DNA of 64,000 bases, taken from the IMG/VR virus record IMGVR_UViG_3300044712_000496, positions 330-64,329 of that record; one strand, written 5' to 3'. The first letter of the stretch is position 1. Every line of letters starts with the position of its first letter. The notes below the pieces were generated by a model, which did no database searches, was not told the DNA's origin, and saw only the letters and a list, made by a program, of their open reading frames with translations. Source of the DNA: a virus (Duplodnaviria; Caudoviricetes). Made by a program: the position numbers and the translations under genes. This document shows positions 1,665 to 53,225 of this stretch, piece after piece.

Positions 1665-1693
1665 TTGACAAAACTCAATATTGATGGTAATAT
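1665..1693 (+). promoter_or_regulatory. Sigma70-like promoter for the morphogenesis operon
   Basis: TTGACA-17 bp-TAATAT with upstream TG. Confidence 0.7.
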
Positions 1694-1732: not shown

Positions 1733-2248
1733 ATGCTCGGGAAGGTTTTAGTGGTCGTCATTTTTTCGTTCCTTCTCTTCGGTTGCGCAGGGATGCCAAT
1801 TCAGGGTCCGTCTCTCTCGGATAATAATGAAAAACTAGGGTGGATAGGCACTCTGGCTGACAAGCTCGGGGATACGATAAGGGCCGATGCGAATGGGGCG
1901 ATCGACTTCTGCAACAGCGTAGACGCCAAGAGCGACCCCATGAGCCGGCTACAGTGTCCGGTCTGCGCACAGGCGACGCTGATCCTGGTTGACAAGGCGG
2001 AAGCCGCTCGGGGGAAAGCGAAAACGGCGTTGCAACAGCTCCAGTTGCTTGGCGGCGACGGGCTGCACGTCATCAAGACCGCTACCATGTTCAAGTATGG
2101 CGCGGGTAAAGACCCCCAGGCGTGGTTCAACGACACTTATGACGAGCTTCTGAGCGACGCGATAAGCTGGAGAAACGCCTGTGCCACGCTTCTGCCGGAG
2201 AAAGAGATGGTCAAACTGGGTATCTCGGGGGCCATGAGCATACGGTGA
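1733..2248 (+). CDS. Lipoprotein
   Basis: Hydrophobic N-terminus with lipobox LLFG-C; several further Cys. Confidence 0.7.
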   Translation: MLGKVLVVVIFSFLLFGCAGMPIQGPSLSDNNEKLGWIGTLADKLGDTIRADANGAIDFCNSVDAKSDPMSRLQCPVCAQATLILVDKAEAARGKAKTALQQLQLLGGDGLHVIKTATMFKYGAGKDPQAWFNDTYDELLSDAISWRNACATLLPEKEMVKLGISGAMSIR

Positions 2249-2251
2249 TCT

Positions 2252-2755
2252 ATGAGCGACCTGTTCGGCCTTGACAGTTTGGGTGTAGAGACTCCTCCAG
2301 CGCTTGAAGTTGAGGAAGAACCCGACTTTTTTGCGCTTTCGTTGGCGCCTCGGGCCGACATTACCGACGTTCCCGCCGGCTCCGATCCATGGCCTCCGAG
2401 TTTTCCCCTCGACATAGCTCTAGGAGCCGAGGACGAGGACAAGATACTGCTCCGGCACGGGGTCTCCCAGGCGAGGTACGAGGATCTGAAGGTCATGCCG
2501 GTGTTCCGCAGGGCTCTGGCCGAGGCGCAGAAGGAGATAGCCGACAAGGGTTATTCGTTCAAGGTCAAGTGCCGGCACATGGCCGAGGATTTCCTGGCGC
2601 AACTCTACAAGGACTTTTTTGGGGACCGGGCGACACTGGCCCAGAGGCATGAGGTCTTCAAAACGACGGCACGGCTCGGGGAGCTGGAGCCTAAAGACGT
2701 TAAAGACGGTCCTGCGGGGGGAGTCCCGCAGGTGAACATTCAGATAAACCTGTAA
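2252..2755 (+). CDS. Putative terminase small subunit
   Basis: Helical protein (FPLDIALG...ILLRHGVS...) ending in a VNIQINL beta tail typical of TerS. Confidence 0.55.
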   Translation: MSDLFGLDSLGVETPPALEVEEEPDFFALSLAPRADITDVPAGSDPWPPSFPLDIALGAEDEDKILLRHGVSQARYEDLKVMPVFRRALAEAQKEIADKGYSFKVKCRHMAEDFLAQLYKDFFGDRATLAQRHEVFKTTARLGELEPKDVKDGPAGGVPQVNIQINL

Positions 2756-2771
2756 TTCAAGGGGGTTCGAT

Positions 2772-3116
2772 ATGAGGTACGTTCTGTTTTCGCTGTTTTT
2801 GATCCTGGCCTTCGCCGGGGTGTCCTGCGCTGCGGCGACCGATGTGACTGTAACCATTACCGGCACGGCTAATATCCGGGTTGCCAAGATGTATAACAAG
2901 ACGAAGTACGACCAGAATCGGATCATCATGCCGGGGGTTCCGGTGATCGACGCCATCGAGGTTCATGCGGTCACGACTACCTGGACATTCAGCAATTCAG
3001 GTCTCGCGTTCTGGGAGATCTACTCCCCGGTTGATGCCTATGTGTACATCGGCAATGACCTTACGAATGGGTGGTACATACCGGCTGGCGGGACTCTCGG
3101 GAGCGGCGTGAGATAA
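2772..3116 (+). CDS. Signal-peptide-bearing small beta-rich protein
   Basis: MRYVLFSLFLILAFAGVSCA-A Sec-type leader. Confidence 0.65.
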   Translation: MRYVLFSLFLILAFAGVSCAAATDVTVTITGTANIRVAKMYNKTKYDQNRIIMPGVPVIDAIEVHAVTTTWTFSNSGLAFWEIYSPVDAYVYIGNDLTNGWYIPAGGTLGSGVR

Positions 3117-3132
3117 GAGGAGGATAACTTTT

Positions 3133-6100
3133 ATGAAATGGACATTCAATGCGGTTTTGTGGGGTGTGATCCTTCTCTGTTCCGGTATATCCTACGGGAT
3201 GGACTTCAATTTTGTGGGTAGCGGCAACGGGGGTGGATCCTCGTCGCTTCAGTCTTATACGGTGGCGACTCTGCCAACAGGTGTGGTTGGCAGAATGGTG
3301 TACGTCACTGACGGAGCGAGTTCGTCCGATTGTAGTGTGGGTCTTGGGACCACTCTAGTTCCTTGTATTTTTAACGGTGCTGCTTATGTCTCCATCGGCG
3401 TAGCGGGGGCATCCACTGTTTCGGATGCGGCATACGACGCTACCGGGTGGAACGGCGACACTACAAACTCGCCGAGCAAGAATGCCATCCGGGATAAGCT
3501 AGAGGCTCTGAATACTGCCTTGCTCGCATCCTCGCTTCAAAACTCCCTTTTCAATGCGCACACGGTCTTGGCTGCGACAACCGACGATACCCCGGCGGCT
3601 TTAACCGTTGGGGAGCAAACAGTAGTCGGCAGGGCGACAGGCGGGAATATTGCAGCCCTTTCTATTGATTCGGACCTCTCTTCAGTTTCGGCCAACGATG
3701 ATACTGTACCAAGCGCAAAAGCGGTAAAAGCCGTGACAGATACACTTGTCACAAAGGCTTTATATGACGCTAACACCATTCTCTACGCAACCACTGACAA
3801 CACCCCTGCCGCACTGACTGTTGCGGAGGACAAACTGGTGGGTCGGGCAACGGGTGGCAATATCGCGGGCATAGGGCTCGGAACGGGTCTTTCTATCACT
3901 GGCGGCAACCTGACTATTGGTACTCTCAATCAGAATACCTCCGGCAACGCGGCAACGGCAACGGCTCTTGCGGCGGACCCCGCAGGATGCACGAACCAAT
4001 TCACCAGGGATATCAACGCTTCCGGCACGGCCACCTGCGCCAGTGTAGCGGCGGCTGACATCACGACCAACACTATTACTGCAACTCAACTCGCAGCGGC
4101 ACTTACTTTCGCCGACGGTGATTTTCTCGACCTCTCCGCCATTACCATGAGCGGAACCAATGACGAGGGGATTGCGATACCTTATTGGGCGAACACCACT
4201 CCTACGAACGGGGCGACCAAACGCTTCCTCACCTGGGACGAGAGTTCTGGGGTCATCAAGATTTACACTGCATCGGGGTGGGTGACAATCAACCCGAGTT
4301 CCGGGGCGCCGACCGATGCGCCCTATCTTGTTGTAGGTTCCTTGAGTGCCTCTCTAAGCGGGGAGCGTCTCATGACCGAGGGACTGGCCATTGACTTCAC
4401 AGACGCGGGGGCGAACGGCAACTTCACCATAGCCTTCGATCCCACCGAGCTGACTGGTGACAGGACTTGGGCGGCTGGCGGAGCGGCCACTACCACCTGG
4501 ACATGGGACGTTTCCACTGGGGCAGATCCTACTCTCGCATTTGGTAACGGGTTGATCTCCACCAATTCCTCGTTCACGGTAGCGACAGGGAAGAACATCA
4601 CGGTAGGGACTACCCAGTGGAACAGCGGGGACTCAATAGATGGGACCAAGGTAGCGAACGCCGATCTCGGCGCGGTGTCTGTCTCCAGCGGTGTATGGTC
4701 TCTGGACAATGGGACCGTGGCTGCGGCTAAACTGGCTGATGCCGACTTCGGGCCTTTTACCGTGGCCTCCGGGGTAGTAACCATAGATGCCGACTCCATC
4801 AACGACACCCATATAGACTGGGGGACCGGGGCGAATCAGGTCAGCATGGATGACATCCCGAATGGCTCCAGTTTCGAGAAGGTTGCTGCTGCGGATGTGG
4901 ACAGCAACGGCCATGTGAATGTCTTCCAGGACTCGGACGGAACCGGGTCGATCTCTGTGACCGGGCTCACGGCGGCTAGGGCAAAAACCGTTAGGGACGC
5001 AGCGGATACTCTCCTCGAACTTGGTGGGTCTTATACCCCGACTGGCACTTGGAACTGGACAAGTGCAACTGTCACATGGCCGACAAGCCTCAATGCCCTG
5101 AATAGCACAACCTCGGCTGCGAACATGCTCCCCTACTACACCGGGAGCGGCACGGCTTCCACCACTTCTCTGACTGCTTTCGGACGTTCCTTGATTGACG
5201 ACGCGGACGCTTCAACTGCGAGAACCACCCTCGGGCTCGCCATAGGCACGGACGTACAGGCTTACAACGCCGCGCTCGCTTCCATCGCGGGGCTTACTGA
5301 GACAGCCGGGGGAACCCCGTACTTCACAGCATCGAATACATGGGCTGTCCTTGCTGCGGGATCCGCAGGGCAGATTTCGAGGTTCGGCGCTTCCACCGCC
5401 CCCACATGGTCAACCTTCACTATCCCCGATACCATCGCCCTCGGTTCCGTGTTCGCGGCAAACAGCCTCAACACCCTCACGGCGATCACTTCCACTAGTG
5501 GCACCAAGTTCCTCCAGAATGCGGACGGCGTGATCTCATGGCAGACCGGCGTTGGTACTATTGGGGGTTCTACAGGTTCAACAGACAACGCCCTGCTCAC
5601 AGCGAATGGCACAGGTGGAAGCACCCTACAAGCGAACAGTTCTACATCTACCCTCTCCGATGCAGGGCTTTTGACTGTCCCGACCCTTTCTTCCGGGGCT
5701 GGTGGCTTTACGGTTGACGCCGATGGGGATGTGGTTGCGAAATCCATAACTATCAGCAAGGTAAGCGGCTTAGCCGGCATCCTTAGTCTCTATGAGGCGA
5801 ACTCCACCGATATGGACTATTCCGGCAGGATCGGCCCGAGTTCTATAACCGCCAACACCTCCTACCTCTTGCGGGATCCGAATGCAAGGGCGACTTCCGG
5901 TAACATGGTGCTTGCCTATACCAACAGCGGGGAGTCCGGTTCCGGCACTCCTGCGGATCCTTACATTCAGGTGGGGTCGTGGGCAGATCTCGATGACTAT
6001 GTGGCAAAAGCCGGGGCTACTATGACCGGCAAACTCACAGCCGTCAATTCTGGAACTTCTTCTGGCTTGAACGTAGGTTATTGGGCATCTCCTCCAGCTT

Positions 6101-7200
6101 CTCCTGTAAATGGTGACTGTTGGACAACCGCTTCAGGTGCCTACTGTCAGATCAACGGCTCGACTGTGGGCCCCTTTGGAGCTGCTGGCGCGGCTGGAAA
6201 CTTCGACACTATCGGGACCGGCACGAATACCACGGCCACTATGACCGTAGGCGCAGGGGCTTCCGTTGTTCCGACTTCTACCGGCATTATCGAGGCGACC
6301 CGTATCTATGCGGCGGCTGATACCCCCGCTACTAAGTACATCACATTCACGGGCGTCTCGGCGGCAAGGGCAAAAACTGTAAGAGACGCGGCAGATACCA
6401 TCCTGGAACTCGGTGGCTCCTATACTCCGACCGGGACATGGACAAACATGGTTCTTGCCGCTCCTAACCTCGGCACCCCTTCCGCTCTTACCCTTACAAA
6501 TGCAACGGGCTTGCCGATAGCTGGTCTTACAGCATCGACTTCAACAGCTTTGGGAGTTGGTTCTATTGAACTCGGTCATGCTTCGGATACCACGTTGGCA
6601 AGGGTGGGCGCAGGGCAAATATCAGTTGAGGGCGTGAATGTTGTGACTACCTCTTCAACTGACACACTCACCAACAAGACCCTTACGACTCCGGTTGTTG
6701 GCAATGGCGCAACTTCGGCAGGTTATATCGAGTTTAGAGAGGACACCGACAACGGGACGAACTATGTTCGCCTTGCCCCTGCCGAATCTCTTGCGGGGGA
6801 CTACAATGTTGTTCTCCCCAGTGCATCGACTACCCTTATCGGCAAGAATACCCCGATTACCCAATGTGCCGTAATCCCGGCAGCGGCAGCCACGGATGAT
6901 TTGCCGATCTTCAAAGCTCCAGCGGCGTTAACTATCGTCGCAAGTTCCATTCATGTTTACGCCATCGGCGGGACGAACGTAGTCGGTGGACTGGATGAGT
7001 GTACTGGAACCAATGGCGTTTGTTCAAGCGTAACGGCTGTTGACGCTGACATTACCGGCACGGCTGGTAGCGATGTTGCCGATGATGGGAGTTTAACAAA
7101 TGGCGGGATTGCAAGCGGCAACTGGATTCAATGGCATACAACAAGTGTGAGTGGCACAAATACAAGTCTGTCAGTGTGCTTCTCCTACACGCTGGATTAA
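3133..7200 (+). CDS. Long tail-fibre/adhesin-like protein (1355 aa) with N-terminal signal peptide
   Basis: G/T/S/A-rich; fibre-type motifs LTAFGRSLIDDADASTARTTLGL, LGTPSALTLTNATGLP and TDTLTNKTLTTP; internal repeats. Confidence 0.75.
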   Translation: MKWTFNAVLWGVILLCSGISYGMDFNFVGSGNGGGSSSLQSYTVATLPTGVVGRMVYVTDGASSSDCSVGLGTTLVPCIFNGAAYVSIGVAGASTVSDAAYDATGWNGDTTNSPSKNAIRDKLEALNTALLASSLQNSLFNAHTVLAATTDDTPAALTVGEQTVVGRATGGNIAALSIDSDLSSVSANDDTVPSAKAVKAVTDTLVTKALYDANTILYATTDNTPAALTVAEDKLVGRATGGNIAGIGLGTGLSITGGNLTIGTLNQNTSGNAATATALAADPAGCTNQFTRDINASGTATCASVAAADITTNTITATQLAAALTFADGDFLDLSAITMSGTNDEGIAIPYWANTTPTNGATKRFLTWDESSGVIKIYTASGWVTINPSSGAPTDAPYLVVGSLSASLSGERLMTEGLAIDFTDAGANGNFTIAFDPTELTGDRTWAAGGAATTTWTWDVSTGADPTLAFGNGLISTNSSFTVATGKNITVGTTQWNSGDSIDGTKVANADLGAVSVSSGVWSLDNGTVAAAKLADADFGPFTVASGVVTIDADSINDTHIDWGTGANQVSMDDIPNGSSFEKVAAADVDSNGHVNVFQDSDGTGSISVTGLTAARAKTVRDAADTLLELGGSYTPTGTWNWTSATVTWPTSLNALNSTTSAANMLPYYTGSGTASTTSLTAFGRSLIDDADASTARTTLGLAIGTDVQAYNAALASIAGLTETAGGTPYFTASNTWAVLAAGSAGQISRFGASTAPTWSTFTIPDTIALGSVFAANSLNTLTAITSTSGTKFLQNADGVISWQTGVGTIGGSTGSTDNALLTANGTGGSTLQANSSTSTLSDAGLLTVPTLSSGAGGFTVDADGDVVAKSITISKVSGLAGILSLYEANSTDMDYSGRIGPSSITANTSYLLRDPNARATSGNMVLAYTNSGESGSGTPADPYIQVGSWADLDDYVAKAGATMTGKLTAVNSGTSSGLNVGYWASPPASPVNGDCWTTASGAYCQINGSTVGPFGAAGAAGNFDTIGTGTNTTATMTVGAGASVVPTSTGIIEATRIYAAADTPATKYITFTGVSAARAKTVRDAADTILELGGSYTPTGTWTNMVLAAPNLGTPSALTLTNATGLPIAGLTASTSTALGVGSIELGHASDTTLARVGAGQISVEGVNVVTTSSTDTLTNKTLTTPVVGNGATSAGYIEFREDTDNGTNYVRLAPAESLAGDYNVVLPSASTTLIGKNTPITQCAVIPAAAATDDLPIFKAPAALTIVASSIHVYAIGGTNVVGGLDECTGTNGVCSSVTAVDADITGTAGSDVADDGSLTNGGIASGNWIQWHTTSVSGTNTSLSVCFSYTLD
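4960..6440 (+). repeat. Intragenic duplication of a ~30-aa module (copies at ~4960-5052 and ~6348-6440)
   Basis: TGLTAARAKTVRDAADTLLELGGSYTPTGTW vs TGVSAARAKTVRDAADTILELGGSYTPTGTW. A second repeat pair (TTD[DN]TPAALTV...VGRATGGNIA) lies at ~3577-3655 and ~3790-3867. Confidence 0.9.
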
Positions 7201-7212
7201 GGAGGGTGGGAT

Positions 7213-7791
7213 ATGTTACAGAAAATCATAATCAATGCCCTTCTATTGATATTTACATGGGTGGGCGTAGCATCTGCCGGGGGGATTGTCGTTGCGAAGA
7301 AAAAGGCGGCGGGTGCCGACTATACCGCCACGGTTGCAAAAGTCTATCTACGTGATGATAGCGGTGTTCACCAGAGTTTCAGAATCGCTGTCTATAATAG
7401 TGCGGGCACTAGGATAGCCGAATCCGACACGGGGACTACTGTAAGCGCAGATGGAACTCGGTCTGTATCGTTCTCTTCCCCTCCAACCTTGTCATCAGCG
7501 GGAACGTATTACATCTCGCTATACGGCACAGGCAGCATCGACAACTATTCCGATGCAGGTGCGTGGCGGCAGCAATACACCACAGTGACTTGGCCCGATT
7601 CTTCGTCAACCATTACTCCCGGCTCCGATTCGGGGCTTAACAGGGGTGAATATGCAATCTGGCTCGAAAATGCCTCTGGTCAAAAAATCGTAGGGGATAA
7701 CAACACGGCGGCTAAAACGACTCCATCTAATACCAGTTCGGGTAGTAACAATGTGTACCTGATAGATGGCTATACGAGGGAAACGCTGTGA
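7213..7791 (+). CDS. Signal-peptide-bearing beta-sandwich protein (putative receptor-binding accessory)
   Basis: MLQKIIINALLLIFTWVGVASA-G leader. Confidence 0.65.
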   Translation: MLQKIIINALLLIFTWVGVASAGGIVVAKKKAAGADYTATVAKVYLRDDSGVHQSFRIAVYNSAGTRIAESDTGTTVSADGTRSVSFSSPPTLSSAGTYYISLYGTGSIDNYSDAGAWRQQYTTVTWPDSSSTITPGSDSGLNRGEYAIWLENASGQKIVGDNNTAAKTTPSNTSSGSNNVYLIDGYTRETL

Positions 7792-8900
7792 AGTATATCA
7801 TCGTCCTAGCATTGGTTCTAATCCCTGCCATAGTTCAGGCGGCTCCGGCTGTTACCTCTGTCACCGGCACGGTATCAAATGCCCAATCTGTTACGATAGC
7901 AGGGAGCGATTTCGGGGCGAATGGGCCGACTGTGTTGCTGTTTGACGATTTCGAGGGGGGTAGTAATGGCAACCAGTTGGCGACAAATCTCGCCCCGTTG
8001 GGTAGTTGGGCGGGGACATACAGCGGCCAATATACGAGCTATTCCAATGCCAACAAGGTTTCCGGTAGCCTCGGCGCAAGGTTTGATATCACTACCTACA
8101 ACTCGGCCACTGAAAATCATCCTGTAATATATTTCCAGGCGGCCTCCGCTTTCGATTCGTTTTTCATCGCATATTGGTCAATGCTCCCCGCTGGCAACAC
8201 CTTCCCCGGTGACGGTTACGGGGGGGCAAATTGGAAAGAAGTCTGGGTGGCAAAGGATGATGTAGTTAACGACGCCGACCTATGCGTAATGGGTAACGGC
8301 TGGACATGGTATCACTGGTTTGGGAATGATCCGTATCATGACACCTACGACTCTCCATCATGGACATTCACAAAAGTTGCTGGAAGGTGGGACCGCTATT
8401 CGTGGTGGACAAAGGGGAGTACCTCCAACGATGGTGCCACCTCTATTTCTATCACTAATACAAATGGCACTACAACCGCATGGGAAAAAACGGGTGTTCA
8501 AACCTTAAACACAGGCGACAGCGGTAAACGAAGGCAGGTATATCTAAATGGATACGTGCGAACCACGCCTAATTCATATCCGACCTTTGATGATGTTTAT
8601 ATAGCAACGGGAGAATATGCCCAGGCAAGGGTTGAGATCGGGGACAATGCCACATATGCCAGTTGTACGAAAATGGCTCTCTGCACGACTCCTGCCGGTA
8701 CTTCAGGGTGGGGCGACACATCCATAACATGCACAGTCAGGCAGGCGTCTTTTACTGCCGGTGATACGGGATACATATTCGTAACCAAAGCGGACGGGGC
8801 ACGGAATAATACAGGCTATCCAGTCACGTTTGGCGCAAGTGCATCATCCTACAAATCCCTCAACGGCGGGGTGTCATTTACGGGAGGGTCGGTTAAATGA
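7788..8900 (+). CDS. Signal-peptide-bearing protein with Ig/IPT-like ends and a jelly-roll (lectin/lyase-like) core
   Basis: MKYIIVLALVLIPAIVQA-A; VTIAGSDFG...DDFE...WK...FDDVYI...WGDTSITCTV. Confidence 0.6.
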   Translation: MKYIIVLALVLIPAIVQAAPAVTSVTGTVSNAQSVTIAGSDFGANGPTVLLFDDFEGGSNGNQLATNLAPLGSWAGTYSGQYTSYSNANKVSGSLGARFDITTYNSATENHPVIYFQAASAFDSFFIAYWSMLPAGNTFPGDGYGGANWKEVWVAKDDVVNDADLCVMGNGWTWYHWFGNDPYHDTYDSPSWTFTKVAGRWDRYSWWTKGSTSNDGATSISITNTNGTTTAWEKTGVQTLNTGDSGKRRQVYLNGYVRTTPNSYPTFDDVYIATGEYAQARVEIGDNATYASCTKMALCTTPAGTSGWGDTSITCTVRQASFTAGDTGYIFVTKADGARNNTGYPVTFGASASSYKSLNGGVSFTGGSVK

Positions 8901-9253
8901 CGCTTGAATGCTCCCCTGAATATTTAGCGGCATCTCCTGAGGTCAGACATCAAGTGTGTAATGGTTGTGGCCCTGGTGGGTGGAAGTTTGACATTATCCC
9001 TGATAATTTATTGGGGCTTCCGATCCACGAACCTTGTGACATCCATGATTGGGATTATGCTTTTGGGTCTACTCAGGCAGATAAGGAAGCGGCTGATTCC
9101 CGTTTTTTGCGCAACATGATGGACACCATTAACAACTACAAGGGATGGACGCGAATCTTGAACCATTGGCGGCGGAAACTTGCTTTAGATTATTATGAGG
9201 CGGTGCATTTGGCAGGGGATTCAGCATTTTGGGAAAATAAGGGACCGAAATGA
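8897..9253 (+). CDS. Phospholipase A2-like / DUF1353-like phage protein
   Basis: CNGCGP...CDIHDWDY...ADSRF (HDxxY plus downstream Asp). Confidence 0.6.
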   Translation: MTLECSPEYLAASPEVRHQVCNGCGPGGWKFDIIPDNLLGLPIHEPCDIHDWDYAFGSTQADKEAADSRFLRNMMDTINNYKGWTRILNHWRRKLALDYYEAVHLAGDSAFWENKGPK

Positions 9254-9630
9254 GATACTTCTTTTTCTTGATTCTGTTTTTTCTGATTATGTCCAGGAGT
9301 GTATTTGCGACAGGAACGCCTACTATCATTACTCCTTCGCAGACTATTTTTTACAATCCGTTGGCCTTAGAGGTATCAAACAGCGACCCGACGGTCGTAG
9401 GGTGTCGATATCGGATTGGTGCTACTCCAGATCCTATTAACGGAACAGAATGCACTGGAGGGGGGGCTAACTGGACCTGCGTTGTAAGTTGCAGCCTGGG
9501 GGCGAACACGGTCTATGTCGCTTGCTATGATGGGGCCGATGTGCAGTCCAGTTCGGAGTCGGTCGTTATTTATTACTACCCTCGCTTACCCTCCCTCGGT
9601 GGAGGGCTATCAGGAGCCGCTTTAAAGTAA
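9250..9630 (+). CDS. Signal-peptide-bearing Cys-rich Ig-like protein
   Basis: MRYFFFLILFFLIMSRSVFA-T leader; 5 Cys. Confidence 0.6.
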   Translation: MRYFFFLILFFLIMSRSVFATGTPTIITPSQTIFYNPLALEVSNSDPTVVGCRYRIGATPDPINGTECTGGGANWTCVVSCSLGANTVYVACYDGADVQSSSESVVIYYYPRLPSLGGGLSGAALK

Positions 9631-9687
9631 ATTTTAATTCAAACCCCGGTAATATTTTTACCGGATTTTTCATAAAGGAGAACTGAC

Positions 9688-10122
9688 ATGGCAATGATCT
9701 TTGAAGACCTCGGCAGCGCAAAAGTCCTCGGGGCATATTTCAACAACACCTGGCCCGCTTCAAATAAGAACCTCACTTTGAAGCTCTACACTTCCAACAC
9801 CACCCCGAGCGCGAGCGGGGGGGACACGGCAGCTACTTTCACAGAGGCTTCCGGCGGCGGGTATGCGGCCATAACTCTCAGCAACGGGTCGTGGACGGTC
9901 TCGGCTTCCGGTGGCATCGAACAGGCGGCATACGCCCAACAGACCTTCACCTTCACCGGGGCGCTCTCGGGTTCGGCTTCGATCTATGGGTATTACGTCG
10001 TTGATGCCGACAACGACCTGATCTTTGCGGAACGCGCAGCGGCGTCCTTCACTCCTGCGAACAACGGCGACACCTATAAAGTGACTCCGGTTGTCCAGAT
10101 GTCGCAGGGTACACCGGCTTAA
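9688..10122 (+). CDS. Virion structural (tail-associated) protein
   Basis: LKLYTSNTTP...EASGGGYA...YGYYV pattern common in small phage tail proteins; AGGAG RBS. Confidence 0.6.
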   Translation: MAMIFEDLGSAKVLGAYFNNTWPASNKNLTLKLYTSNTTPSASGGDTAATFTEASGGGYAAITLSNGSWTVSASGGIEQAAYAQQTFTFTGALSGSASIYGYYVVDADNDLIFAERAAASFTPANNGDTYKVTPVVQMSQGTPA

Positions 10123-10135
10123 TCTGGAGGGCATG

Positions 10136-11137
10136 ATGGCGCGTGAGTTCATAGACGGTTTCGAGACGGGCGATTTTGGGCTCTGGGACACTTCGGCCCT
10201 GGACGCAAACTCCACGGTTGTTGCAAACAGCCTTAATTTCCCCGGCGGGTCTTACTGTTTCCACACATACACCGGCTGGCTGAGTCGCACAGTCACCAGC
10301 CGGTCGGCCTACTACGTCGCCATGCGCCTCATGCTCAAGAGCAATGACATAAACCAGTCCTTTATCCAGTTCAGGAACGGCACCACGGTTCTCGGGTGCG
10401 CTCGCATCGACAACGACAATAATTACCACCATGTAAAGATCTACCGGGGGGACGAGGCCAACCTTATCGCCACGGGTGCGACCGCAACCCCCTTCGGCAC
10501 AAGCCCCTATACTCCATTTCACATCGAGTTCTATTACGCTCCGAGCACCACCAGCGGCTCGTTTATCGTGAAAATCAACGGAACCACCGATGCCAACCTC
10601 AACATAACCGGGGCGCAGACCTCCAACAATGATTTGAACATCGACAACATCAGGATAGGGAGTTGGGGGAGTGACTGCACATATATCGACGATGTGGTTA
10701 TAGAGACTGCCGGCTGGATTGGGCGAACTCAGATCGAGGGGCTTGTTCCGAATGGCGCAGGGGCGACTACTCAGTGGACTCCGAGTGCCGGGTCGAACTA
10801 TCAGTGTGTGGACGAGACTCCCAAGAGCGATTCCGACTCCGTTAGCACCAACACCAACGATAACATAGACACCTATGCGATGTCTGATCTTGTGGGAACC
10901 GGGACTGTTAAGGCTGTGGCCCTGTGCGTGAGGGCTAAATACGACGGTACTCCGAATGGCACCAACATAGCGGGGGTTGTCCGTACAGGTGGAAGCAACT
11001 ACGCCGGCAGCGACAAGGCGTTGGCAACATCATACTCAAGTAACCAGTGGCTTTGGGAGACAAACCCAAGTACGTCTAGCACCTGGGCTGCTTCCGCCGT
11101 CAACGGGCTGGAAGCGGGAATTAAAATGAGGGCGTAG
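10136..11137 (+). CDS. Virion structural protein with concanavalin-like core
   Basis: FIDGFETG...HIEF...IDDVVI...LVPNG; start chosen after GGAGG. Confidence 0.6.
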   Translation: MAREFIDGFETGDFGLWDTSALDANSTVVANSLNFPGGSYCFHTYTGWLSRTVTSRSAYYVAMRLMLKSNDINQSFIQFRNGTTVLGCARIDNDNNYHHVKIYRGDEANLIATGATATPFGTSPYTPFHIEFYYAPSTTSGSFIVKINGTTDANLNITGAQTSNNDLNIDNIRIGSWGSDCTYIDDVVIETAGWIGRTQIEGLVPNGAGATTQWTPSAGSNYQCVDETPKSDSDSVSTNTNDNIDTYAMSDLVGTGTVKAVALCVRAKYDGTPNGTNIAGVVRTGGSNYAGSDKALATSYSSNQWLWETNPSTSSTWAASAVNGLEAGIKMRA

Positions 11138-11139
11138 GC

Positions 11140-12024
11140 ATGGCGGACCAGCAGGTTGTATCACAAGTCATAGCGCAGGTTGAGAGCCAGAGCGCACCGA
11201 TTGACTATCAAACGGTCAGCCAGGTAGTTCTTCAGGTCGAGACCAACCCCAATGAGATTTCGTATTCCGTTACTTCAGCGGGTGGGTGTGTCACGGGTGG
11301 ATCCTCCAGTGTGTTGCGGGGCAAGGTTTTTCCCTCGACCAACGGCTCCATAGTAGGAGGAGCATCGGTTGTTTCCTACCAGCATACTTATTCCGTGGTT
11401 TCTTCCGATGGACTGGTCGTGGGCGGAGCCTCAGCCATAAGCATGGGGGCGGGCTACAACATGGTGTCGTCCGGCGGTCTGGTCACGGCGGGGGTGACTT
11501 CCCTGGTGCGTGGTCAGGTGGTTCCGTCTTTCGGGGGCGCAGTGACGGGCGGTTCCAGTCCCCAGGTTCAAGGCCGCGTGGAAGTTTCTTCGTCCGGGGG
11601 GGTAGTTGGCGGCGGGGCTGCAATAACTGGGTTCCACAATTATTCGGTTTCTTCGCTCGGGGGTCTTGTCGCTGGCGGGGCATCAGAGTTCGATTTTGGT
11701 CTCAGCTACCCTATTCGGTCGAGCGGCGGGGCGGTGTTCGGCGGTAGTTCTGCCGTCGGCTATGACGGCTCGATAGTTTCCGCAGGGGGTTCCGTAGCGG
11801 GGGGTTCGTCGGGGATCCTGCTTCTCCCGATCCGCGTGATTCGCAAATTGCGAATGCACCCCCAGTTGAATGTTCCTAAAATTCAGGGCCGGGTCAAACA
11901 GGCCAGCGTTCACGGTGAGGTACAGGCGGCGAGCGCGGCTATCAGGTTCGGCGCATTGCGCCAGGTCGGGGTTATCGGCGGACTGTCGATAGAGTTCCAT
12001 CTCCGGTCGCGGAGGGAGATATGA
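11140..12024 (+). CDS. Gly/Ser/Val-repeat fibre-like protein
   Basis: About nine SxGGxVxGG-type repeats. Confidence 0.65.
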   Translation: MADQQVVSQVIAQVESQSAPIDYQTVSQVVLQVETNPNEISYSVTSAGGCVTGGSSSVLRGKVFPSTNGSIVGGASVVSYQHTYSVVSSDGLVVGGASAISMGAGYNMVSSGGLVTAGVTSLVRGQVVPSFGGAVTGGSSPQVQGRVEVSSSGGVVGGGAAITGFHNYSVSSLGGLVAGGASEFDFGLSYPIRSSGGAVFGGSSAVGYDGSIVSAGGSVAGGSSGILLLPIRVIRKLRMHPQLNVPKIQGRVKQASVHGEVQAASAAIRFGALRQVGVIGGLSIEFHLRSRREI

Positions 12025-12416
12025 AAACAGTTTCAGAGTACACGGACGCTACGCTGACCCTTACCTTCAGCGACGAGAACGGGCTGGCCGTTACCCCCAA
12101 CAGCGGGAGGTACGCGGTCTTCGACGGCGGGACCGAGGAGATGCTCGTTCCCTGGACGGCATTCACACCAGCAGCGGCCACGTTCGACATAAGTATTGGC
12201 GGGTACTACAACCGCATCTTAGATGTCGATAATGAGTCGGAGATCCGGGTGGTGTCGGTAGAGCTGGTTTATGGCAGCAAGCGGGCAATGGGGGAGTACG
12301 AGTATGCCGTTGCTAACCTGAAGCACATCCCGCCTTCGTACTTGATTACTTCGTCCAAAGGGGCGGTGTTCGGCGGAACGGCTTCGATTGTTGGAAACGA
12401 GGTGGTGATCCAATGA
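12021..12416 (+). CDS. Putative tail adaptor (BppU-like) protein
   Basis: TLTLTFSDENGLAVTP N-terminus; coupled to the previous gene. Confidence 0.5.
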   Translation: MKTVSEYTDATLTLTFSDENGLAVTPNSGRYAVFDGGTEEMLVPWTAFTPAAATFDISIGGYYNRILDVDNESEIRVVSVELVYGSKRAMGEYEYAVANLKHIPPSYLITSSKGAVFGGTASIVGNEVVIQ

Positions 12417-12598
12417 GCAAGCAATTCACGGTGGTCGTAGAGAATGCGTTGATCTTCGATTGCTGCGCGAACCGGCGATACTGGTTCATCAAGCAAGGGT
12501 ACAACGCGGAGACGCTGGCGATTCAGGACCGCCCTTGGGATAGGTTCCTACACTGCGGGTTGGGTTGTCCGAAGGAGGAGAAAGATGCCGGGGCTTGA
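12413..12598 (+). CDS. Hypothetical protein
   Basis: ATGA-coupled 61-aa ORF. Confidence 0.45.
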   Translation: MSKQFTVVVENALIFDCCANRRYWFIKQGYNAETLAIQDRPWDRFLHCGLGCPKEEKDAGA

Positions 12599-13145
12599 GG
12601 ACAAATTTTATGAAGTGATACTGCTGAACGAATGCTCCGGCAACATCGTCGTAGCGACCCGGTTCTCCTATGCCGGGGGCGCAAGCGGTTGGAGTTTCGG
12701 GGTCTCCCAGATGGACGTGTCACACTCGGAAAATGCGCTCAAGTGTCTGGAGGAGTGCGGGTTCAGCGGCGGCGAGATAGCACATCTCATAAAGATGGAG
12801 GGAGACCGGAAGGAGTGGTCGAAACGGTTGCCGGCCCATGCGGACACCATCAGGAAGTGGGATCTCATTCAGTTGTCCGAGTGCCTCGGAAAGACCTGGA
12901 GATTCATAGGGGCGTATAATCTCACCCCTGCGGACGACGCGGCGATTCTTATGTGCGCAGATACCATCAACCAGTTCGGGTCTTTAGGGCGCCAGTCAGG
13001 GGCGTGTCTGGGGAACTTGGGGCGTCCTTTCACGGCCCAAGACCTGTTTGAATACAAATTGGCATGGAAGTATGGGGAAGAGCATCCGAAGGACGTACAA
13101 CGCAGGTATGACAATATCCTGCGGGTGGTGAAAGGAGAAGCGTGA
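12585..13145 (+). CDS. Putative endolysin (lysozyme-like fold)
   Basis: ILLNE...SGWSFGVSQMD...NQFG...DVQRRY; followed by membrane proteins. Confidence 0.6.
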   Translation: MPGLEDKFYEVILLNECSGNIVVATRFSYAGGASGWSFGVSQMDVSHSENALKCLEECGFSGGEIAHLIKMEGDRKEWSKRLPAHADTIRKWDLIQLSECLGKTWRFIGAYNLTPADDAAILMCADTINQFGSLGRQSGACLGNLGRPFTAQDLFEYKLAWKYGEEHPKDVQRRYDNILRVVKGEA

Positions 13146-13312
13146 TGTCGAATTTTGATCTGAACAAGATGATTCTATTGGTCCTCACACTGGCACTGAT
13201 TATGGGTTTTTTTGTAGCGATTCCCAAGGATAACGCAGGACTCGTAAACAACATCATATCTGCGTTGATCGGGGCGTTCACAGGCTACGCAGCGGCCAAG
13301 GCGGGGATGTAG
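13145..13312 (+). CDS. Putative holin (55 aa, 2 TM)
   Basis: Manual translation MSNFDLNKMILLVLTLALIMGFFVAIPKDNAGLVNNIISALIGAFTGYAAAKAGM. Confidence 0.6.
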   Translation: MSNFDLNKMILLVLTLALIMGFFVAIPKDNAGLVNNIISALIGAFTGYAAAKAGM

Positions 13313-13325
13313 AAGGGGGGTCACT

Positions 13326-13601
13326 ATGGAACAGCAAGTTATCAGCGGGTGTTTGCTGGCGGCATTTCTCGGGTTCTTCGTATGGCTTCTCCAGAAGCGG
13401 CTCACCGATCCTATCGTGCAGTTCAAAGACGCAGTAGAGCGGCTCGAAAAGGCAGTTGATCGGCTGACCACGAAACAGGATGCGGAGAGCAAACAGCGAA
13501 GCGATCTTGAGGCGAAATTTTCGGCTCTTCAGGCTGCGCACGATACGAGGGTGGGTATGCGGATTTCATGCGCAGCTTGTGGACGCGAGGAGGATCAATA
13601 G
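13326..13601 (+). CDS. Single-TM coiled-coil lysis-associated protein (holin/antiholin-like)
   Basis: N-terminal TM followed by a heptad coiled coil. Confidence 0.55.
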   Translation: MEQQVISGCLLAAFLGFFVWLLQKRLTDPIVQFKDAVERLEKAVDRLTTKQDAESKQRSDLEAKFSALQAAHDTRVGMRISCAACGREEDQ

Positions 13602-14603: not shown

Positions 14604-14713
14604 GCGGTTTCTGGTGCCGGAAGCGCAAGGAGCAGATGGACGAGAGTTGCGACGACTGCGAGGATTGTCCGGGGATAAGCAAATGGGAGCTAGAGACCAA
14701 TGGCGAACAATAA
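14600..14713 (+). CDS. Small Cys-rich protein (37 aa)
   Basis: MSGFWCRKRKEQMDESCDDCEDCPG...; ATGA coupling. Confidence 0.45.
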   Translation: MSGFWCRKRKEQMDESCDDCEDCPGISKWELETNGEQ

Positions 14714-16202
14714 GCTGATATATAAATCCCCCGGTCCTGTTACAAGTGCGTTTTTGAGGTCTCAATGTGATTCGAGGGGGATCATGGGGCCATATGGGTC
14801 TGGGAAGTCAACGACTTGTATTATGGAGCTTCTACGCCAGTCTATAGAAATGCCTGTGTGGTCAAACGGCTATCGTTGTAGCCGTATGCTTGTTGTGCGC
14901 AATACGAAAGACCAACTTAAGGATATAACTTTGAAGTCTGTTTATGATTCTATTCCCTTCGAGATGGGTCTATATCGTTGGAAAGAGTCTGAGCGCACAC
15001 TGATTTTTGTGTTTAACGATGTGCGCTCTGAGTGGTTGTTTCGGTCGCTGGACACCCAGGAAGACATTCAGAGGGTACTTGGGATGCAGGTATCATGGAT
15101 ATGGGTGGACGAATGCCGAGAAGTCCCTGTTTCCCTTCTTGGTGACTTGGAGGCCAGGTCTGGTCGTTTCCCGTCGCAGCGCCCTTCGGAGGAGTACCCT
15201 GAAGGATTCCACTACAGGTCAGGAACTATTTACGCCACAAACCCCCCTGAAATAGACTCCGATTGGTACAAAATATTTGAGCGTCTACCACAGGATGAAG
15301 ATGACACAGAAGGTAATTCTGTTTTTGAAATGGATGTGTTCAAGCAGCCTTCAGGTCTGAGTCCTGAAGCGGAGAACAAGGAGAATCTGCGTCCTGGTTA
15401 CTACGAAAAACTGGCGAGAGGCAAGAAAAAAGACTGGGTGGATCAGTACGTTCATGGCCGCTATGCCAAGTCCCTTGCCGGTAAGCCGGTATATGAACTC
15501 TCCTTCCAGTACGACCGCAGGGTTAAGAGCGACCTCCGCATAGACCCTTCGCTCCCGGTCATCATAGGTGTGGACTGCGCCCGTCAGCCGGCGATGGTCT
15601 TCATGCAGTTGCAACGGGACGGGAAGCTGCGGAAGCTGCGCGAGGCGGTGGGCTTCGACATGGGGGCCAAGACCTTCATCGCCACGAAGGTCAAGCCGAT
15701 CCTCCGCAACGACTTCCCTCTCTGCCCGTGGGTGTTCGTGGGGGATCCTTCGTGGGTGACTCAGAATAACACGGACGACAACTCCTGGTTCAAGGAGCTG
15801 AAGAAGCAGTTCGTAACAGAGATGCCCGGTTCCGGGAACGCCGTGAAGTCGGCGATAACCAACGACCTCGACGCCCGGATCAACGCCCTCGATGACCCGT
15901 TCCGCAATATGTGGCCCGACGGCGAGCCGGGGATTGAGTATGACTCCAGTTGCAAGATGCTGATTGAGGGGCTTCGGAGCAAGTACCGCTACGTCCGCCT
16001 GAAGACCTTGGATGGCCGCTATCAGGACAAGCCCGAAAAGAACCGCTGGAGCCATTGTTGTGAGGCTGACCAGTATGGGACGATGTTCATTCTCGGCAAG
16101 CACTACCGGGCCGAGGACTACAGCAGGTCGAAGACGGATTTTTTCCTGAACTCGTTGCGCGGATCCACGCGCCCTGTCGGTGATCGTTACACCGGATATT
16201 AA
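14700..16202 (+). CDS. terL: Terminase large subunit
   Basis: Walker A GPYGSGKST, Walker B WIWVDE, ATNPP, nuclease IGVD...HCCEADQY; directly upstream of the portal. Confidence 0.92.
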   Translation: MANNKLIYKSPGPVTSAFLRSQCDSRGIMGPYGSGKSTTCIMELLRQSIEMPVWSNGYRCSRMLVVRNTKDQLKDITLKSVYDSIPFEMGLYRWKESERTLIFVFNDVRSEWLFRSLDTQEDIQRVLGMQVSWIWVDECREVPVSLLGDLEARSGRFPSQRPSEEYPEGFHYRSGTIYATNPPEIDSDWYKIFERLPQDEDDTEGNSVFEMDVFKQPSGLSPEAENKENLRPGYYEKLARGKKKDWVDQYVHGRYAKSLAGKPVYELSFQYDRRVKSDLRIDPSLPVIIGVDCARQPAMVFMQLQRDGKLRKLREAVGFDMGAKTFIATKVKPILRNDFPLCPWVFVGDPSWVTQNNTDDNSWFKELKKQFVTEMPGSGNAVKSAITNDLDARINALDDPFRNMWPDGEPGIEYDSSCKMLIEGLRSKYRYVRLKTLDGRYQDKPEKNRWSHCCEADQYGTMFILGKHYRAEDYSRSKTDFFLNSLRGSTRPVGDRYTGY

Positions 16203-19552: not shown

Positions 19553-20563
19553 ATGGCTATTAATCTGTATGGGGACATCTCCCCGCGTACCGCAGGGAAG
19601 GCGATGCCCGGTTTCCTAATGAGGGCGCTTCCGTATTTGACCATCGAGAAATTCATTGATCTTCGTCCCCTTCCTTCCAACTCGACCAAGGTGGCGATCT
19701 TCAGGCGTTATGAGGCTCTCGCTGTCGCAACCACCCCGCTCGTTGAGGGCGTGACTCCGCAGGGCAACGCGGTCGCCAAGACCGACTATTCCTGCACCCT
19801 GACCCAGTATGGCGATTTTGTCCAGCTCACCGACCACATCGCCGACTTCCATGAGGATTCTGTCCTTCAGGAGTACACCGGCATCATTGCTGAACAGGCG
19901 GCTCAGACCCTTGAGACCCTCCGCTACAACACCCTCAAGGCCGGGACCAACAAGTTCTACGCCAACGGCACCGCCCGTACCGACGTGAACACCCCGATCA
20001 CCCTGTCTCTCCAGAGGAAGATCACCCGCGCATTCAAACGCCAGAACGTCGGCTACATCACTCAGCAGACCGCCAGCACCCCGAACTTCGGGACTGTCTC
20101 CGTCCGCGCCGGTTATGTGGCCCTGGTTCACCCCGACTGTGAGAATGATGTCCGTGCGATGGCCGGGTTCAAGGATGCCGTGGACTACGGTTCAAAGGTT
20201 CCCGTCGATACCTTCGAGATCGGCTGCGTCGAGGATGTCCGCTACATCCGTTCGACCATTTATGAGTCCTATGCCAACGGTGGTGGGGCTTATGCTGGTT
20301 CCGGTTCCTCGATGGTGACGACCGGCGGCACTTCTGCCGACGTTTATCCGATCATCTTCCTTGGTTCTCATTGTGCTGCGTCTGTGCCGCTGAAGGGCAA
20401 GAGTTCCGTCATCGCCCCCATCGTGCGCAATCCCGGCACCATCTCTGATTCCGACAAGCTCGGTCAGAGGGGCCATGTGGGTTGGAAGGCATACTTCGGC
20501 TGTGTGATCCTCAATCAGCTCTTCATGGCTGTTGCCGAGGTCGCCGCTTCCGAACTGAGCTAA
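19553..20563 (+). CDS. Major capsid protein, N4-gp56 family
   Basis: YGDISPRTA, FRRY, LVEGVTP, QYGDF and DKLGQRGHVGWK motifs; strongly biased codon usage. Confidence 0.92.
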   Translation: MAINLYGDISPRTAGKAMPGFLMRALPYLTIEKFIDLRPLPSNSTKVAIFRRYEALAVATTPLVEGVTPQGNAVAKTDYSCTLTQYGDFVQLTDHIADFHEDSVLQEYTGIIAEQAAQTLETLRYNTLKAGTNKFYANGTARTDVNTPITLSLQRKITRAFKRQNVGYITQQTASTPNFGTVSVRAGYVALVHPDCENDVRAMAGFKDAVDYGSKVPVDTFEIGCVEDVRYIRSTIYESYANGGGAYAGSGSSMVTTGGTSADVYPIIFLGSHCAASVPLKGKSSVIAPIVRNPGTISDSDKLGQRGHVGWKAYFGCVILNQLFMAVAEVAASELS

Positions 20564-22430: not shown

Positions 22431-23123
22431 ATGCTCCGTGTCGATGTCCTAGACGAACTCAGGCATGTCCTCCGTGACACCCGCACTCCCTACAGGTGGA
22501 GCGACAGGCGCCTTATGCGGTTCCTTGCGATGGGCCAGGATCAGTTCTGTAAGGACACCGGCTTTTTCACCGACCGCAACAGCTACACCATAACGACCCA
22601 GGCGGGTATCGACCAGTACGATATCGACTCAAGGATCATCAGGGTTTACGAGGTGTGGTACGGCGACAACGTGCGGCTGACCCAGTTCTTCGAGCATCAG
22701 CGTTCGTCCGAGGCACTGGACCAGTGGAGCAATTCTTTCTCCACCATCGAACTGACACCGGGGCCCCCCTATGGGTGGCAGACGGACCGGGAGACCCAGA
22801 AGCTGACACTTTACCCCATCCCCGACACCGTTTATGAATTTGACCTCCGGGTACAGCGCAGGAGCCTGGTCGTGTTCGACCACCAGGATGTGAACGGGAA
22901 GTTCGACACCGAACTTGAGATCCCGGAGGACCACCACTTCGCACCCATCGAGTACGCCGCGTGGAGGGCTTTTTCCGATCATGACTCCGAATTGCAGGAT
23001 CCCGTGAAGGCGGCGGAGCATTTCGGCAATTACAAGATGTATGCCAAAGAGGGGAAACGGGATTTCAGAAGGCTGTCAGGCGGGGGTCCGACGTTCGCCG
23101 GCAATCCTCTCTATGTAGTGTGA
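22431..23123 (+). CDS. Head-tail adaptor protein
   Basis: LRDTRTPYRWSD...LYPIPD...EIPEDHH...YAAWRAF. Confidence 0.7.
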   Translation: MLRVDVLDELRHVLRDTRTPYRWSDRRLMRFLAMGQDQFCKDTGFFTDRNSYTITTQAGIDQYDIDSRIIRVYEVWYGDNVRLTQFFEHQRSSEALDQWSNSFSTIELTPGPPYGWQTDRETQKLTLYPIPDTVYEFDLRVQRRSLVVFDHQDVNGKFDTELEIPEDHHFAPIEYAAWRAFSDHDSELQDPVKAAEHFGNYKMYAKEGKRDFRRLSGGGPTFAGNPLYVV

Positions 23124-39160: not shown

Positions 39161-39243
39161 GGGGGGTTTAAAAAGGGAGCCTTTTTACTACTTTGGGGGG
39201 ATGGCGGTTCGGCCCTTCCAGGCCTCATGACTCAGCAACCAAA

Positions 39244-39330
39244 GGGGGGGTGGCGGAACTGGTAAACGCGGCAGACTCAAAATCTGTTGCCCGTCCGGGC
39301 TTGGGGGTTCGATTCCCCCTCCCCCTACCA
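39244..39330 (+). tRNA. tRNA-Leu (anticodon CAA)
   Basis: D arm TGGCGGAACTGGTAAACGC, anticodon arm GCAGA-CTCAAAA-TCTGT, long variable arm, GGTTCGATTCC, encoded ACCA end. Confidence 0.93.
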
Positions 39331-53220: not shown

Positions 53221-53225
53221 CCTCA

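Follow-up and report, generated by a model that had tools for sequence, protein, structure and literature searches.

A block of genes with Sec leaders

The 64,000 nucleotide (nt) stretch of DNA analysed here, referred to throughout as the window, corresponds to bases 330-64329 of the 64,329 bp viral record IMGVR_UViG_3300044712_000496. At 1733-9630 the window carries a block of eight open reading frames (ORFs), all of which were confirmed on the plus strand. Six of the eight encode proteins with N-terminal leaders of the kind used by the general secretory (Sec) pathway, amongst them a fibre-like protein of 1355 amino acids (aa). The genes of the block are listed below, together with the leader of each exported product and the residue that follows the predicted cut.

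1733..2248, plus strand: predicted lipoprotein of 171 aa; leader MLGKVLVVVIFSFLLFG, ending in LFG, then C after the cut (a probable lipobox); four further Cys in the mature part
2252..2755, plus strand: leaderless 167-aa protein with an acidic N-terminus (phrog_36773, E 6e-5)
2772..3116, plus strand: small Sec-leader protein of 114 aa; leader MRYVLFSLFLILAFAGVSCA, then A; directly upstream of the giant fibre gene, as in other cassettes
3133..7200, plus strand: fibre-like mosaic protein of 1355 aa; leader MKWTFNAVLWGVILLCSGISYG, then M; Gly-rich linker, small Cys-pair domain, tail-fibre repeat modules and variable C-terminal domain
7213..7791, plus strand: Sec-leader protein of 192 aa; leader MLQKIIINALLLIFTWVGVASA, then G; stand-alone copy of a fibre end module
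7788..8900, plus strand: Sec-leader protein of 370 aa; leader MKYIIVLALVLIPAIVQA, then A; IPT/TIG-like, central jelly-roll-like and second IPT/TIG-like domains
8897..9253, plus strand: leaderless phospholipase A2 (PLA2)-like protein of 118 aa; PLA2 profile matches and conserved motif
9250..9630, plus strand: Sec-leader protein of 126 aa; leader MRYFFFLILFFLIMSRSVFA, then T; five Cys in the mature part

Leaders were called from the N-termini by eye and with a home-made heuristic for n-, h- and c-regions. Five of the six are of the signal peptidase I type, the genes at 2772, 3133, 7213, 7788 and 9250 all showing the expected Sec features by both approaches, and the sixth, at 1733, has a probable lipobox; no leader is present on the products of 2252-2755 and 8897-9253. 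The layout is that of one or two basic residues, 9-20 uncharged hydrophobic residues and small residues at positions -3 and -1. The lipobox reads L-F-G-C, with Ala at +2; the Phe at -2 lies outside the strict [LVI][ASTVI][GAS]C pattern, the remainder of which fits. None of the six leaders contains a twin-arginine motif, which rules out the twin-arginine translocation (Tat) route, and a signal-anchor-release (SAR) reading is ruled out by the strongly hydrophobic h-regions (mean Kyte-Doolittle values of 2.2-3.9).

Each leader gene begins at the first ATG or GTG past an in-frame stop located 4-15 codons upstream, and each has a Shine-Dalgarno site of the GGAG/AGGGG type ~8-16 nt before the start. 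The hydrophobic segments are therefore not artefacts of start calling, and the possibility raised in the preliminary description of this DNA, that the true starts lie downstream of them, does not hold. By the heuristic, leaders are found in six of the eight block genes versus three of the 66 other called ORFs (Fisher p = 1.2e-5), and two of those three are doubtful small antisense ORFs. Amongst diverged homologues the layout of the leader is kept whilst its sequence drifts. The original count of six leader genes in eight is thus borne out by inspection, by the heuristic, by the checks on starts and by conservation in homologues. On present indications the six proteins are very probably exported and fold outside the cytoplasm.

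Two further observations concern the leader proteins of this genome. Cys residues account for 1.12% of the six leader proteins versus 1.24% of the other proteins, a density that is not raised, and the description of the leader proteins as Cys-rich was rejected. Outside the block, the sole convincing leader (MKKLLLVVAFSLVASVSYA, then G) belongs to a 99-aa protein of the early/replication arm (40833-41132, minus strand), which might be an exclusion or surface protein.

The giant fibre-like protein

The 1355-aa protein has 155 homologues at E<=1e-3. In 11 of the 14 best fetched homologues, a leader with an AXA-type cut site is followed by a Gly-/Pro-rich linker; of the others, P0003 and P0010 are without a leader and P0008 is cut at its N-terminus. 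Amongst the 119 fibre homologues listed, 22 bear leaders (21 by the heuristic and P0007 by eye), these being concentrated among the closest matches, and the other 97 are leaderless with classic fibre N-termini, so the leader occupies the position of the usual virion-anchoring N-terminus. In tblastn searches, modules of 44-57 residues match proteins annotated as tail fibres in phages of Caulobacter, Rhizobium and Puniceispirillum. Judged by these alignments, the fibre modules are common to ordinary leaderless tail fibres and to a leader-bearing minority. No N-terminal (docking) domain shared by leader-bearing fibres from different contigs was found.

The mature protein contains ten Cys residues, eight of them in four close pairs, with C1245 and C1349 standing apart. 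The three pairs named in the preliminary description (C-SVGLGTTLVP-C, C-WTTASGAY-C and C-TGTNGV-C) are indeed present, alongside the leader and the fibre modules. C67 and C78 co-occur in five of 12 aligned homologues and C286 and C302 in two of 12; the other pairs are private to the window protein. The pairing fits with the formation of disulfides.

Other searches with this protein gave little. It is absent from all five related phage records searched, its alignment has no match in species-representative genomes, and a viral scan returned only shared short motifs, L017 being an unrelated leaderless fibre of 2720 aa. Neither it nor the 370-aa protein has a sequence match amongst solved structures, and a search of the ESM Atlas yielded only weak viral neighbours of the Mtd_N type, with scores below 0.9. 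The S74 domain (PF13884) has no match in the 1355-aa protein, though some of its homologues carry PF13884.

The 370-aa protein

The product of 7788-8900 has relatives in 1996 cluster representatives at E<=1e-3 and in 194 at E<=1e-30. A canonical leader is present in 28 of the 30 homologues that were fetched, and the heuristic calls one in 103 of 150. TIG (PF01833) matches eight of 29 aligned family members (best E 1.4e-4), the window protein itself not being one of them, and the profile of the family matches an IPT/TIG chain in PDB entry 8co1 (E 2e-4). The polysaccharide lyase family PF14099 matches a single member of the 29, and has no match in the window protein, which can therefore be called 'lyase-like' at most. 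When 33 longer relatives were scanned, 24 had Pfam matches; in long relatives the 370-aa module is fused to Big, PKD, dockerin, F5/8-C, LamG, Calx-beta, BACON and beta-helix domains. Fusion partners such as these are typical of secreted carbohydrate-active proteins, and by its domain company the 370-aa protein is a member of a large family of secreted-type carbohydrate-active or carbohydrate-binding proteins. Profile comparison revealed no link between the family and a leaderless 334-aa neighbour encoded downstream of the block, nor between it and a 254-aa protein of the locus L109 (both described below). No match to either the 370-aa or the 167-aa protein was found in cultured phages.

The smaller proteins of the block

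None of the leader proteins matches a family in Pfam, PHROGs, NCBIfam or PADLOC, apart from a sub-threshold match of the 192-aa protein to a type IX secretion system (T9SS) tail. In its mature form the 192-aa protein is 27% identical (E 2e-7) to residues 1398-1571 of a 1572-aa leader protein encoded at the locus L107, the match reaching the very C-terminus. From this alignment, the last 175 residues of the L107 giant are a fused version of the separate 192-aa leader protein of the window. The 114-aa protein is 26% identical over 120 aa (E 3.5e-5) to a 121-aa leader protein of the related phage G001; a word-based search with it found only itself.

The 118-aa protein, one of the two block proteins that lack a leader, belongs to a family for which 17 homologues were collected, none of which has a leader. 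Within the family NGCG..G, C47, H50 and D67 are invariant, D51 and Y54 occur in 90% or more of the members, and the family profile matches the Streptomyces PLA2 structure 1faz (E 4.9e-8) as well as 4aup, 7ygk and 8k1w. PF09056 matches four of the 17 members, all under the Pfam cut-off, and the window protein scores 18.6 bits against a cut-off of 29.4. Both this gene and its neighbour at 9250-9630 fall below the threshold of a home-made codon-usage caller, in a stretch of lower G+C content (0.50).

Similar C-terminal tails are found on three of the leader proteins that are not homologous to one another: GISGAMSIR (2238-2248) on the lipoprotein, GVSFTGGSVK (8888-8900) on the 370-aa protein and GGLSGAALK (9618-9630) on the 126-aa protein, with the tail of the 114-aa protein, GTLGSGVR, a near miss. 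A regular expression for the tail, defined after the data had been seen, matches these three of the six window leader proteins versus one of 482 other called proteins, the sole outside match being a leader-bearing 490-aa protein of the locus L100 (13725-15197); in the 370-aa family it matches four of 150 members. The shared tail could be a docking or sorting tail.

Recurrence of the cassette and its slot in relatives

Alignment searches with the fibre and the 370-aa family brought up three metagenome loci and seven viral loci. Those analysed comprise two of the metagenome loci (L102, of 1.8 kb, being set aside) and five of the viral loci (L112 and L113, which are cut matches, being set aside), and encode the following relevant proteins.

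L100: proteins of 128, 72, 1252 (the fibre), 260, 490 and 110 aa, all with leaders (those of 128 and 260 aa only from a downstream start)
L101: proteins of 145 and 781 aa, both with leaders
L107: proteins of 104, 1572 and 413 aa (the last of the 370-aa family), all with leaders
L109: a leaderless protein of 110 aa, then proteins of 1072, 254 and 449 aa with leaders
L110: a protein of 606 aa with a leader and one of 387 aa (leader from a downstream start)
L108: a member of the 370-aa family without a flagged leader; no giant protein
L111: a gene of the 370-aa family cut by the contig end

Five other contigs, viral or from metagenomes, also contain a core trio, set amongst different neighbours, that consists of a small leader protein, a giant leader-bearing fibre and a leader-bearing protein of IPT/jelly-roll type. 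In L109 the cassette is found between the gene for the portal (phrog_332) and those for the protease and coat (phrog_458 and phrog_212), and overlaps the neighbouring genes of the head operon, leaving no gap for signals of its own.

Amongst the relatives of the window phage, the block gene that is kept in most is that for the leaderless 167-aa protein, which heads a variable fibre slot there. Six of nine related phage records have a homologue (G001-G004, G007 and G008, with 40-46% identity in G001-G004) and none was found in G005, G006 and G009. Only G001 of the six marker-bearing relatives has leader genes in the slot, encoding proteins of 121 and ~525 aa.

Genome context

A 127-bp repeat is present at both ends of the record, which is therefore a complete phage genome. 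The window is, from its gene content, nearly all of the genome of a short-tailed temperate phage. The main structural and integration features are these.

14700-16202, plus strand: large terminase
16214-18358, plus strand: portal-sized protein
19553-20563, plus strand: major head protein (phrog_1357, E 1.9e-55)
22431-23123, plus strand: SU10-type adaptor
23136-24056, plus strand: head-closure protein
Plus strand: giant protein of 2443 aa
37166-38167, plus strand: tyrosine integrase (from Pfam and PHROGs scans)
39244-39327: tRNA-Leu, downstream of the integrase

Replication genes occupy the minus strand and encode a DUF927 primase-helicase, an SNF2 helicase, a split family-A polymerase and a PD-(D/E)XK nuclease. 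The closest cultured relative of the coat protein is that of Pseudomonas phage Rollin (43%), followed by those of Pseudoalteromonas, Xanthomonas and Stenotrophomonas phages, and further relatives are found on contigs of metagenome-assembled Nitrospira (56%), Competibacter and Betaproteobacteria genomes. Given coat relatives in phages of Gram-negative bacteria and in such metagenome genomes, the host is likely to be a two-membrane (Gram-negative-type) bacterium.

Between the block and the terminase lie the following.

9688..12416, plus strand: leaderless fibre-type set of 144, ~334, 294 and 131 aa (PF23140, Gp80 fibre, E 0.0013, below the cut-off; phrog_2448, E 1.5e-21)
12585..13601, plus strand: putative lysis cassette encoding proteins of 186 aa, 56 aa (with a pair of hydrophobic helices) and 91 aa (with a membrane helix at the N-terminus and a coiled coil)

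In the fibre-type set it is the 144-aa protein that has the Gp80 match, and this protein is 52% identical to the product of a gene in the tail module of the relative G002; the next protein matches phrog_2448. These genes are likely to be ordinary tail-fibre gear, as far as such matches go. Within the lysis cassette, 13326-13601 matches phrog_739, an Rz-like (inner-membrane) spanin, with an E value of 6e-4, the other lysis assignments being inferred from sequence, and a search around the lysis genes yielded no lipoprotein of the outer-membrane spanin kind. It is conceivable that the leaderless PLA2-like enzyme (8897-9253) contributes to opening the outer membrane.

The block, the fibre-type set, the lysis cassette, a phosphoesterase gene and the terminase gene share one strand with little space between them: from 1733 as far as the terminase, neighbouring genes either overlap or lie 3-97 nt apart. 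The placing of the block inside the morphogenesis operon by the preliminary description is thus only roughly right: it is found upstream of the leaderless fibres, the putative lysis cassette, the phosphoesterase and the terminase at 14700. Two candidate transcription signals flank it.

1665..1693, plus strand: sigma-70-like promoter, TTGACA-17 nt-TAATAT with an upstream TG, 10/12 matches, ~40 nt before the first gene of the block
9646..9664, plus strand: weak terminator-like hairpin, then AUUUUUCAU, within the 57 nt that separate the last leader gene from the next gene

On account of the promoter-like site, the block may begin a transcription unit; the site is a consensus match only, in a scan that returned 17 promoter-like sites in 15 kb versus 9.6 expected from shuffled sequences. 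The hairpin has a centroid energy of -10.4 kcal/mol and a z score of -1.25 against shuffles, which is not significant, and the terminator scan showed no enrichment over shuffles. As the block's own terminator it is a poor candidate. Amongst sequencing runs, only the probable DNA run of the source is listed, and none of RNA.

Several side observations concern the rest of the genome. Directly after the terminal repeat, at 55-83 on the plus strand, is a perfect sigma-70 consensus promoter (TTGACA-17 nt-TATAAT, 12/12) ahead of small genes, one of which, at 834-986, encodes a ribbon-helix-helix regulator-like protein by eye. The family-A DNA polymerase is split between adjacent ORFs of 366 and 460 aa (55075-57550, minus strand), both halves matching a single ORF of ~685 aa in the relatives G001 and G002. 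Also on the minus strand, a protein with a dATP/dGTP diphosphohydrolase N-domain (52687-53358; PF18909, E 4.5e-26) adjoins a weak nucleoside 2-deoxyribosyltransferase-like protein (52245-52652); no match to an adenylosuccinate-synthetase-like protein (PurZ) was found among the window proteins scanned. Modification of DNA bases by this phage is possible. In the leaderless fibre-type set, the ORF listed at 10091-11137 (plus strand) has a TTG start without a ribosome-binding site, and its true start is probably the ATG pair at 10133 (MMAREFID...); as listed, it is a 348-aa protein for which no viral relatives were found. ARAGORN calls a 93-nt tRNA-Arg at 11496-11588 (plus strand), inside the Gly/Ser-rich ORF of 294 aa at 11140-12024, but Rfam does not support it and the call is probably false.

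Comparison with known systems

Assembly of tailed phages is, in the textbook account, wholly cytoplasmic, and this view underlies the annotation of genes for fibres and depolymerases. Leaderless tail fibres and tailspikes of the ordinary kind resemble the proteins of the block in their repeat modules, in their genomic slot in relatives and in having glycan-active partner proteins. They differ in possessing an N-terminal virion-anchoring domain and in having no leader; the N-terminus of the window's 1355-aa protein is instead a leader and a Gly-rich linker. Single genes with a signal peptide or lipobox are found beside tail-fibre genes in the cases of lambda Lom, Bor, T5 Llp and Cor, each encoding one small outer-membrane protein or lipoprotein. 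None of them is known to belong to a multi-gene set that combines a giant fibre with a glycan-active protein.

In Cellulophaga phage phi10:1 (KC821618.1), gp091-gp094 and the pectate lyase gp095 all have Sec-type leaders. The likeness to the window lies in a run of consecutive leader-bearing late genes at the end of the tail module, directly before the lysis genes and including one polysaccharide lyase. The two differ in that the phi10:1 proteins have no sequence similarity to those of the window, the host belongs to the Bacteroidota, Gln follows the cut site and the phage backbone is another one. The phi10:1 annotation reportedly goes back to work by Holmfeldt and colleagues published in 2013.

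Bacterial chromosomes offer further parallels. The MAT fibres of Bdellovibrio bacteriovorus have, according to Caulton et al. (2024; PMC10769870), a signal peptide and a conserved N-terminal domain of ~130 aa, and form mosaic trimeric fibres on the cell surface, some members also having an S74 chaperone-protease. They share with the window proteins a signal peptide, a long mosaic fibre of phage-like modules and a variable tip, the MAT N-terminal domain being beta-rich. The difference is that MATs are encoded by chromosomal genes of a predatory bacterium and have one invariant N-terminal domain, whereas leader-bearing phage fibres have no common N-terminal domain and are located in phage late operons. 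No MAT sequence was found by sequence among solved structures.

The WceF protein of Pantoea stewartii, according to its description (PMC7949094), is a tailspike-like trimeric glycanase with an export signal that acts on the cell's own exopolysaccharide. In that account it differs in being chromosomal, in being exported folded by Tat and in having a P22-like head-binding domain, the leaders of the window being of Sec type. From phages themselves, Matrishin et al. (2023; PMC10367356) report five genes in Porphyromonas gingivalis prophages that lack an assigned function and whose products bear Sec signal peptides adapted to the host, and propose that such phage proteins may modify the host outer membrane or cell surface. 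These genes differ from the block in coming from another host phylum and, in the passages concerned, are not tied to fibres. Searches of full-text articles, supplements excluded, yielded no description of Sec-leader tail fibres in tailed phages, the nearest accounts being those of Matrishin et al., of Caulton et al. and of WceF.

Function of the block

The reading that we favour, though tentatively, is that the block forms a portable cassette of a temperate short-tailed phage, transcribed late and coding for exported proteins that recognise sugars, and that these products serve, away from particle assembly, as accessory gear that is either free or envelope-bound. Particles would be built in the cytoplasm whilst the six leader proteins pass unfolded through SecYEG, with signal peptidase I cutting five of the leaders and signal peptidase II cutting the sixth to give a lipoprotein. 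The proteins would then fold in the periplasm with disulfides, the fibre trimerising there. The 1355-aa product would be a long fibre-type adhesin and the 192-aa product a separate copy of a fibre end module. The 370-aa protein would bind or cut sugars, the proteins of 114 and 126 aa would act as small partners, and that of 171 aa would be the lipoprotein; the gene for the leaderless PLA2-like enzyme lies amongst theirs. Breakage of the envelope at lysis would set the proteins free, whereupon, in what is the least certain step, they would bind and perhaps cut the host surface glycan on the dying cell, on debris and on neighbouring cells; clearing of matrix and receptors would let the progeny escape and avoid their waste. 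The leaderless set at 9688-12416 would remain the particle's own receptor-binding gear. An accessory role is favoured because the cassette is portable, its fibre lacks the N-terminal anchor and leaderless fibres are encoded next door, and the occurrence of the cassette in different places and amongst different neighbours fits a unit that needs no match to a given tail.

Several points weigh against this reading. Export is predicted from sequence rules and a home-made heuristic, and to pass the outer membrane before lysis the exported proteins would need a further route. The 370-aa protein is no more than a putative enzyme, PF14099 matching one of 29 family members (E 6.6e-5). In five of the six marker-bearing relatives (G002, G003, G004, G007 and G008) the genes that follow the 167-aa marker are leaderless and fibre- or tailspike-like, and in Rollin a leaderless tail fibre of 836 aa is encoded upstream of the terminase, so the slot is that of a receptor-binding protein. 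The promoter-like site and the weak hairpin bracket the block, so that the prophage might express it. Lastly, the sole experimental hint points away from this reading: gp091-gp094 of phi10:1 are annotated in GenBank as structural, on the basis of 'experimental MS/MS proteomics' (MS/MS, tandem mass spectrometry).

The slot and the Cellulophaga annotation are also amongst the points that speak for the products being virion appendages matured in the periplasm, which would fold oxidatively, dock on finished particles at lysis and serve as receptor-binding or depolymerase parts. We consider this somewhat unlikely. It would account for the position of the block in what is the fibre slot of the lineage (G002, G003, G004, G007, G008 and Rollin), for modules held in common with annotated tail fibres, for the packing of the block in one run with late genes and for the four leader-bearing MS/MS-annotated structural proteins that phi10:1 encodes beside a leader-bearing pectate lyase, before its lysis genes; the C-terminal tail on three of the six leader proteins would be a possible docking strand, the pattern being post hoc. 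However, the inner membrane separates particles from exported proteins until lysis, leader-bearing fibres have no conserved N-terminal docking domain, the cassette is found at different places with different neighbours, and the phage has other, leaderless fibres. The Cellulophaga proteins, moreover, are dissimilar to those of the window, and their detection by mass spectrometry, taken from the GenBank annotation only, could reflect co-purification. Of the proposal in the preliminary description that these are exported, periplasm-folded receptor-binding parts attached at lysis, the first part holds up, with leaders that look genuine and are conserved, cargo of fibre and sugar type and paired Cys; the receptor-binding role and the attachment to virions sit poorly with the leaderless fibres at 9688-12416, with a leader in place of the anchor and with the variable sites of the cassette. 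The alternative given in the preliminary description, a phage-encoded surface adhesin or appendage, may still apply and is akin to the Bdellovibrio MAT fibres. It is likewise somewhat unlikely, in our estimate, that the cassette represents a widespread and undescribed assembly route in which Sec-exported fibres, depolymerase-like enzymes and small adaptors, folded with disulfides in the periplasm, would dock at lysis, perhaps via a C-terminal strand G-x-S-x-x-G-x-x-K/R.

A role in the lysogen is improbable. Here the block would be a lysogenic-conversion 'moron', expressed from its own promoter to give a surface adhesin and a glycan-modifying enzyme, or to mask the receptor against superinfection. 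The phage is temperate, with an integrase at 37166-38167 and a tRNA-Leu gene nearby, at 39243-39330 in its wider call, and the promoter-like site (1665-1693) and the hairpin with its U-run (9646-9664) bracket the block exactly; the variable insertion sites in other phages are moron-like. The Bdellovibrio MATs indicate that a Gram-negative cell can carry trimeric fibres with leaders on its surface, and the proposal of Matrishin et al. that phage proteins with leaders may alter the outer membrane of the host is of the same kind. Against this, the hairpin is weak (z = -1.25) and the terminator scan did not rise above shuffles, and within the bracket lies the 167-aa gene, which is conserved in relatives and stands first in their late fibre slot. 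In L109 the cassette overlaps its head-operon neighbours, with no room for signals of its own, and G013, a complete record with a member of the 370-aa family, is without a tyrosine integrase, the other three records searched being fragments. Least probable is that the proteins are not exported at all, the hydrophobic segments being uncleaved membrane anchors or other helices, or export failing late in infection, such that the proteins stay on the cytoplasmic side. The 192-aa protein does have an uncharged run of ~24 residues followed by KKK that can be read as a membrane anchor, but all three regions (n, h and c) of a signal peptide are present in the leaders, the h-regions being 9-20 residues long and small residues occupying -3 and -1, the layout is conserved in homologues despite drift in sequence, the 370-aa family is fused to domains of secreted proteins, and Cys residues come in pairs.

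Significance

The cassette implies one of two things: either some virion parts undergo maturation in the periplasm and are added to the particle at a late stage, or phages routinely secrete adhesins of fibre type, together with glycan-active proteins, for tasks away from the particle. If the docking route is true, part of the host-recognition gear of many uncultured phages would be built outside the cytoplasm. The cultured Cellulophaga phage phi10:1 provides a direct experimental testing ground. Either outcome would alter the prediction of receptor-binding genes in metagenomic phages and would bear on the recombinant expression of fibres and depolymerases, where an oxidising compartment and removal of the leader come into play. 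Either would also affect our understanding of how phages act on host surfaces and on biofilm matrix.

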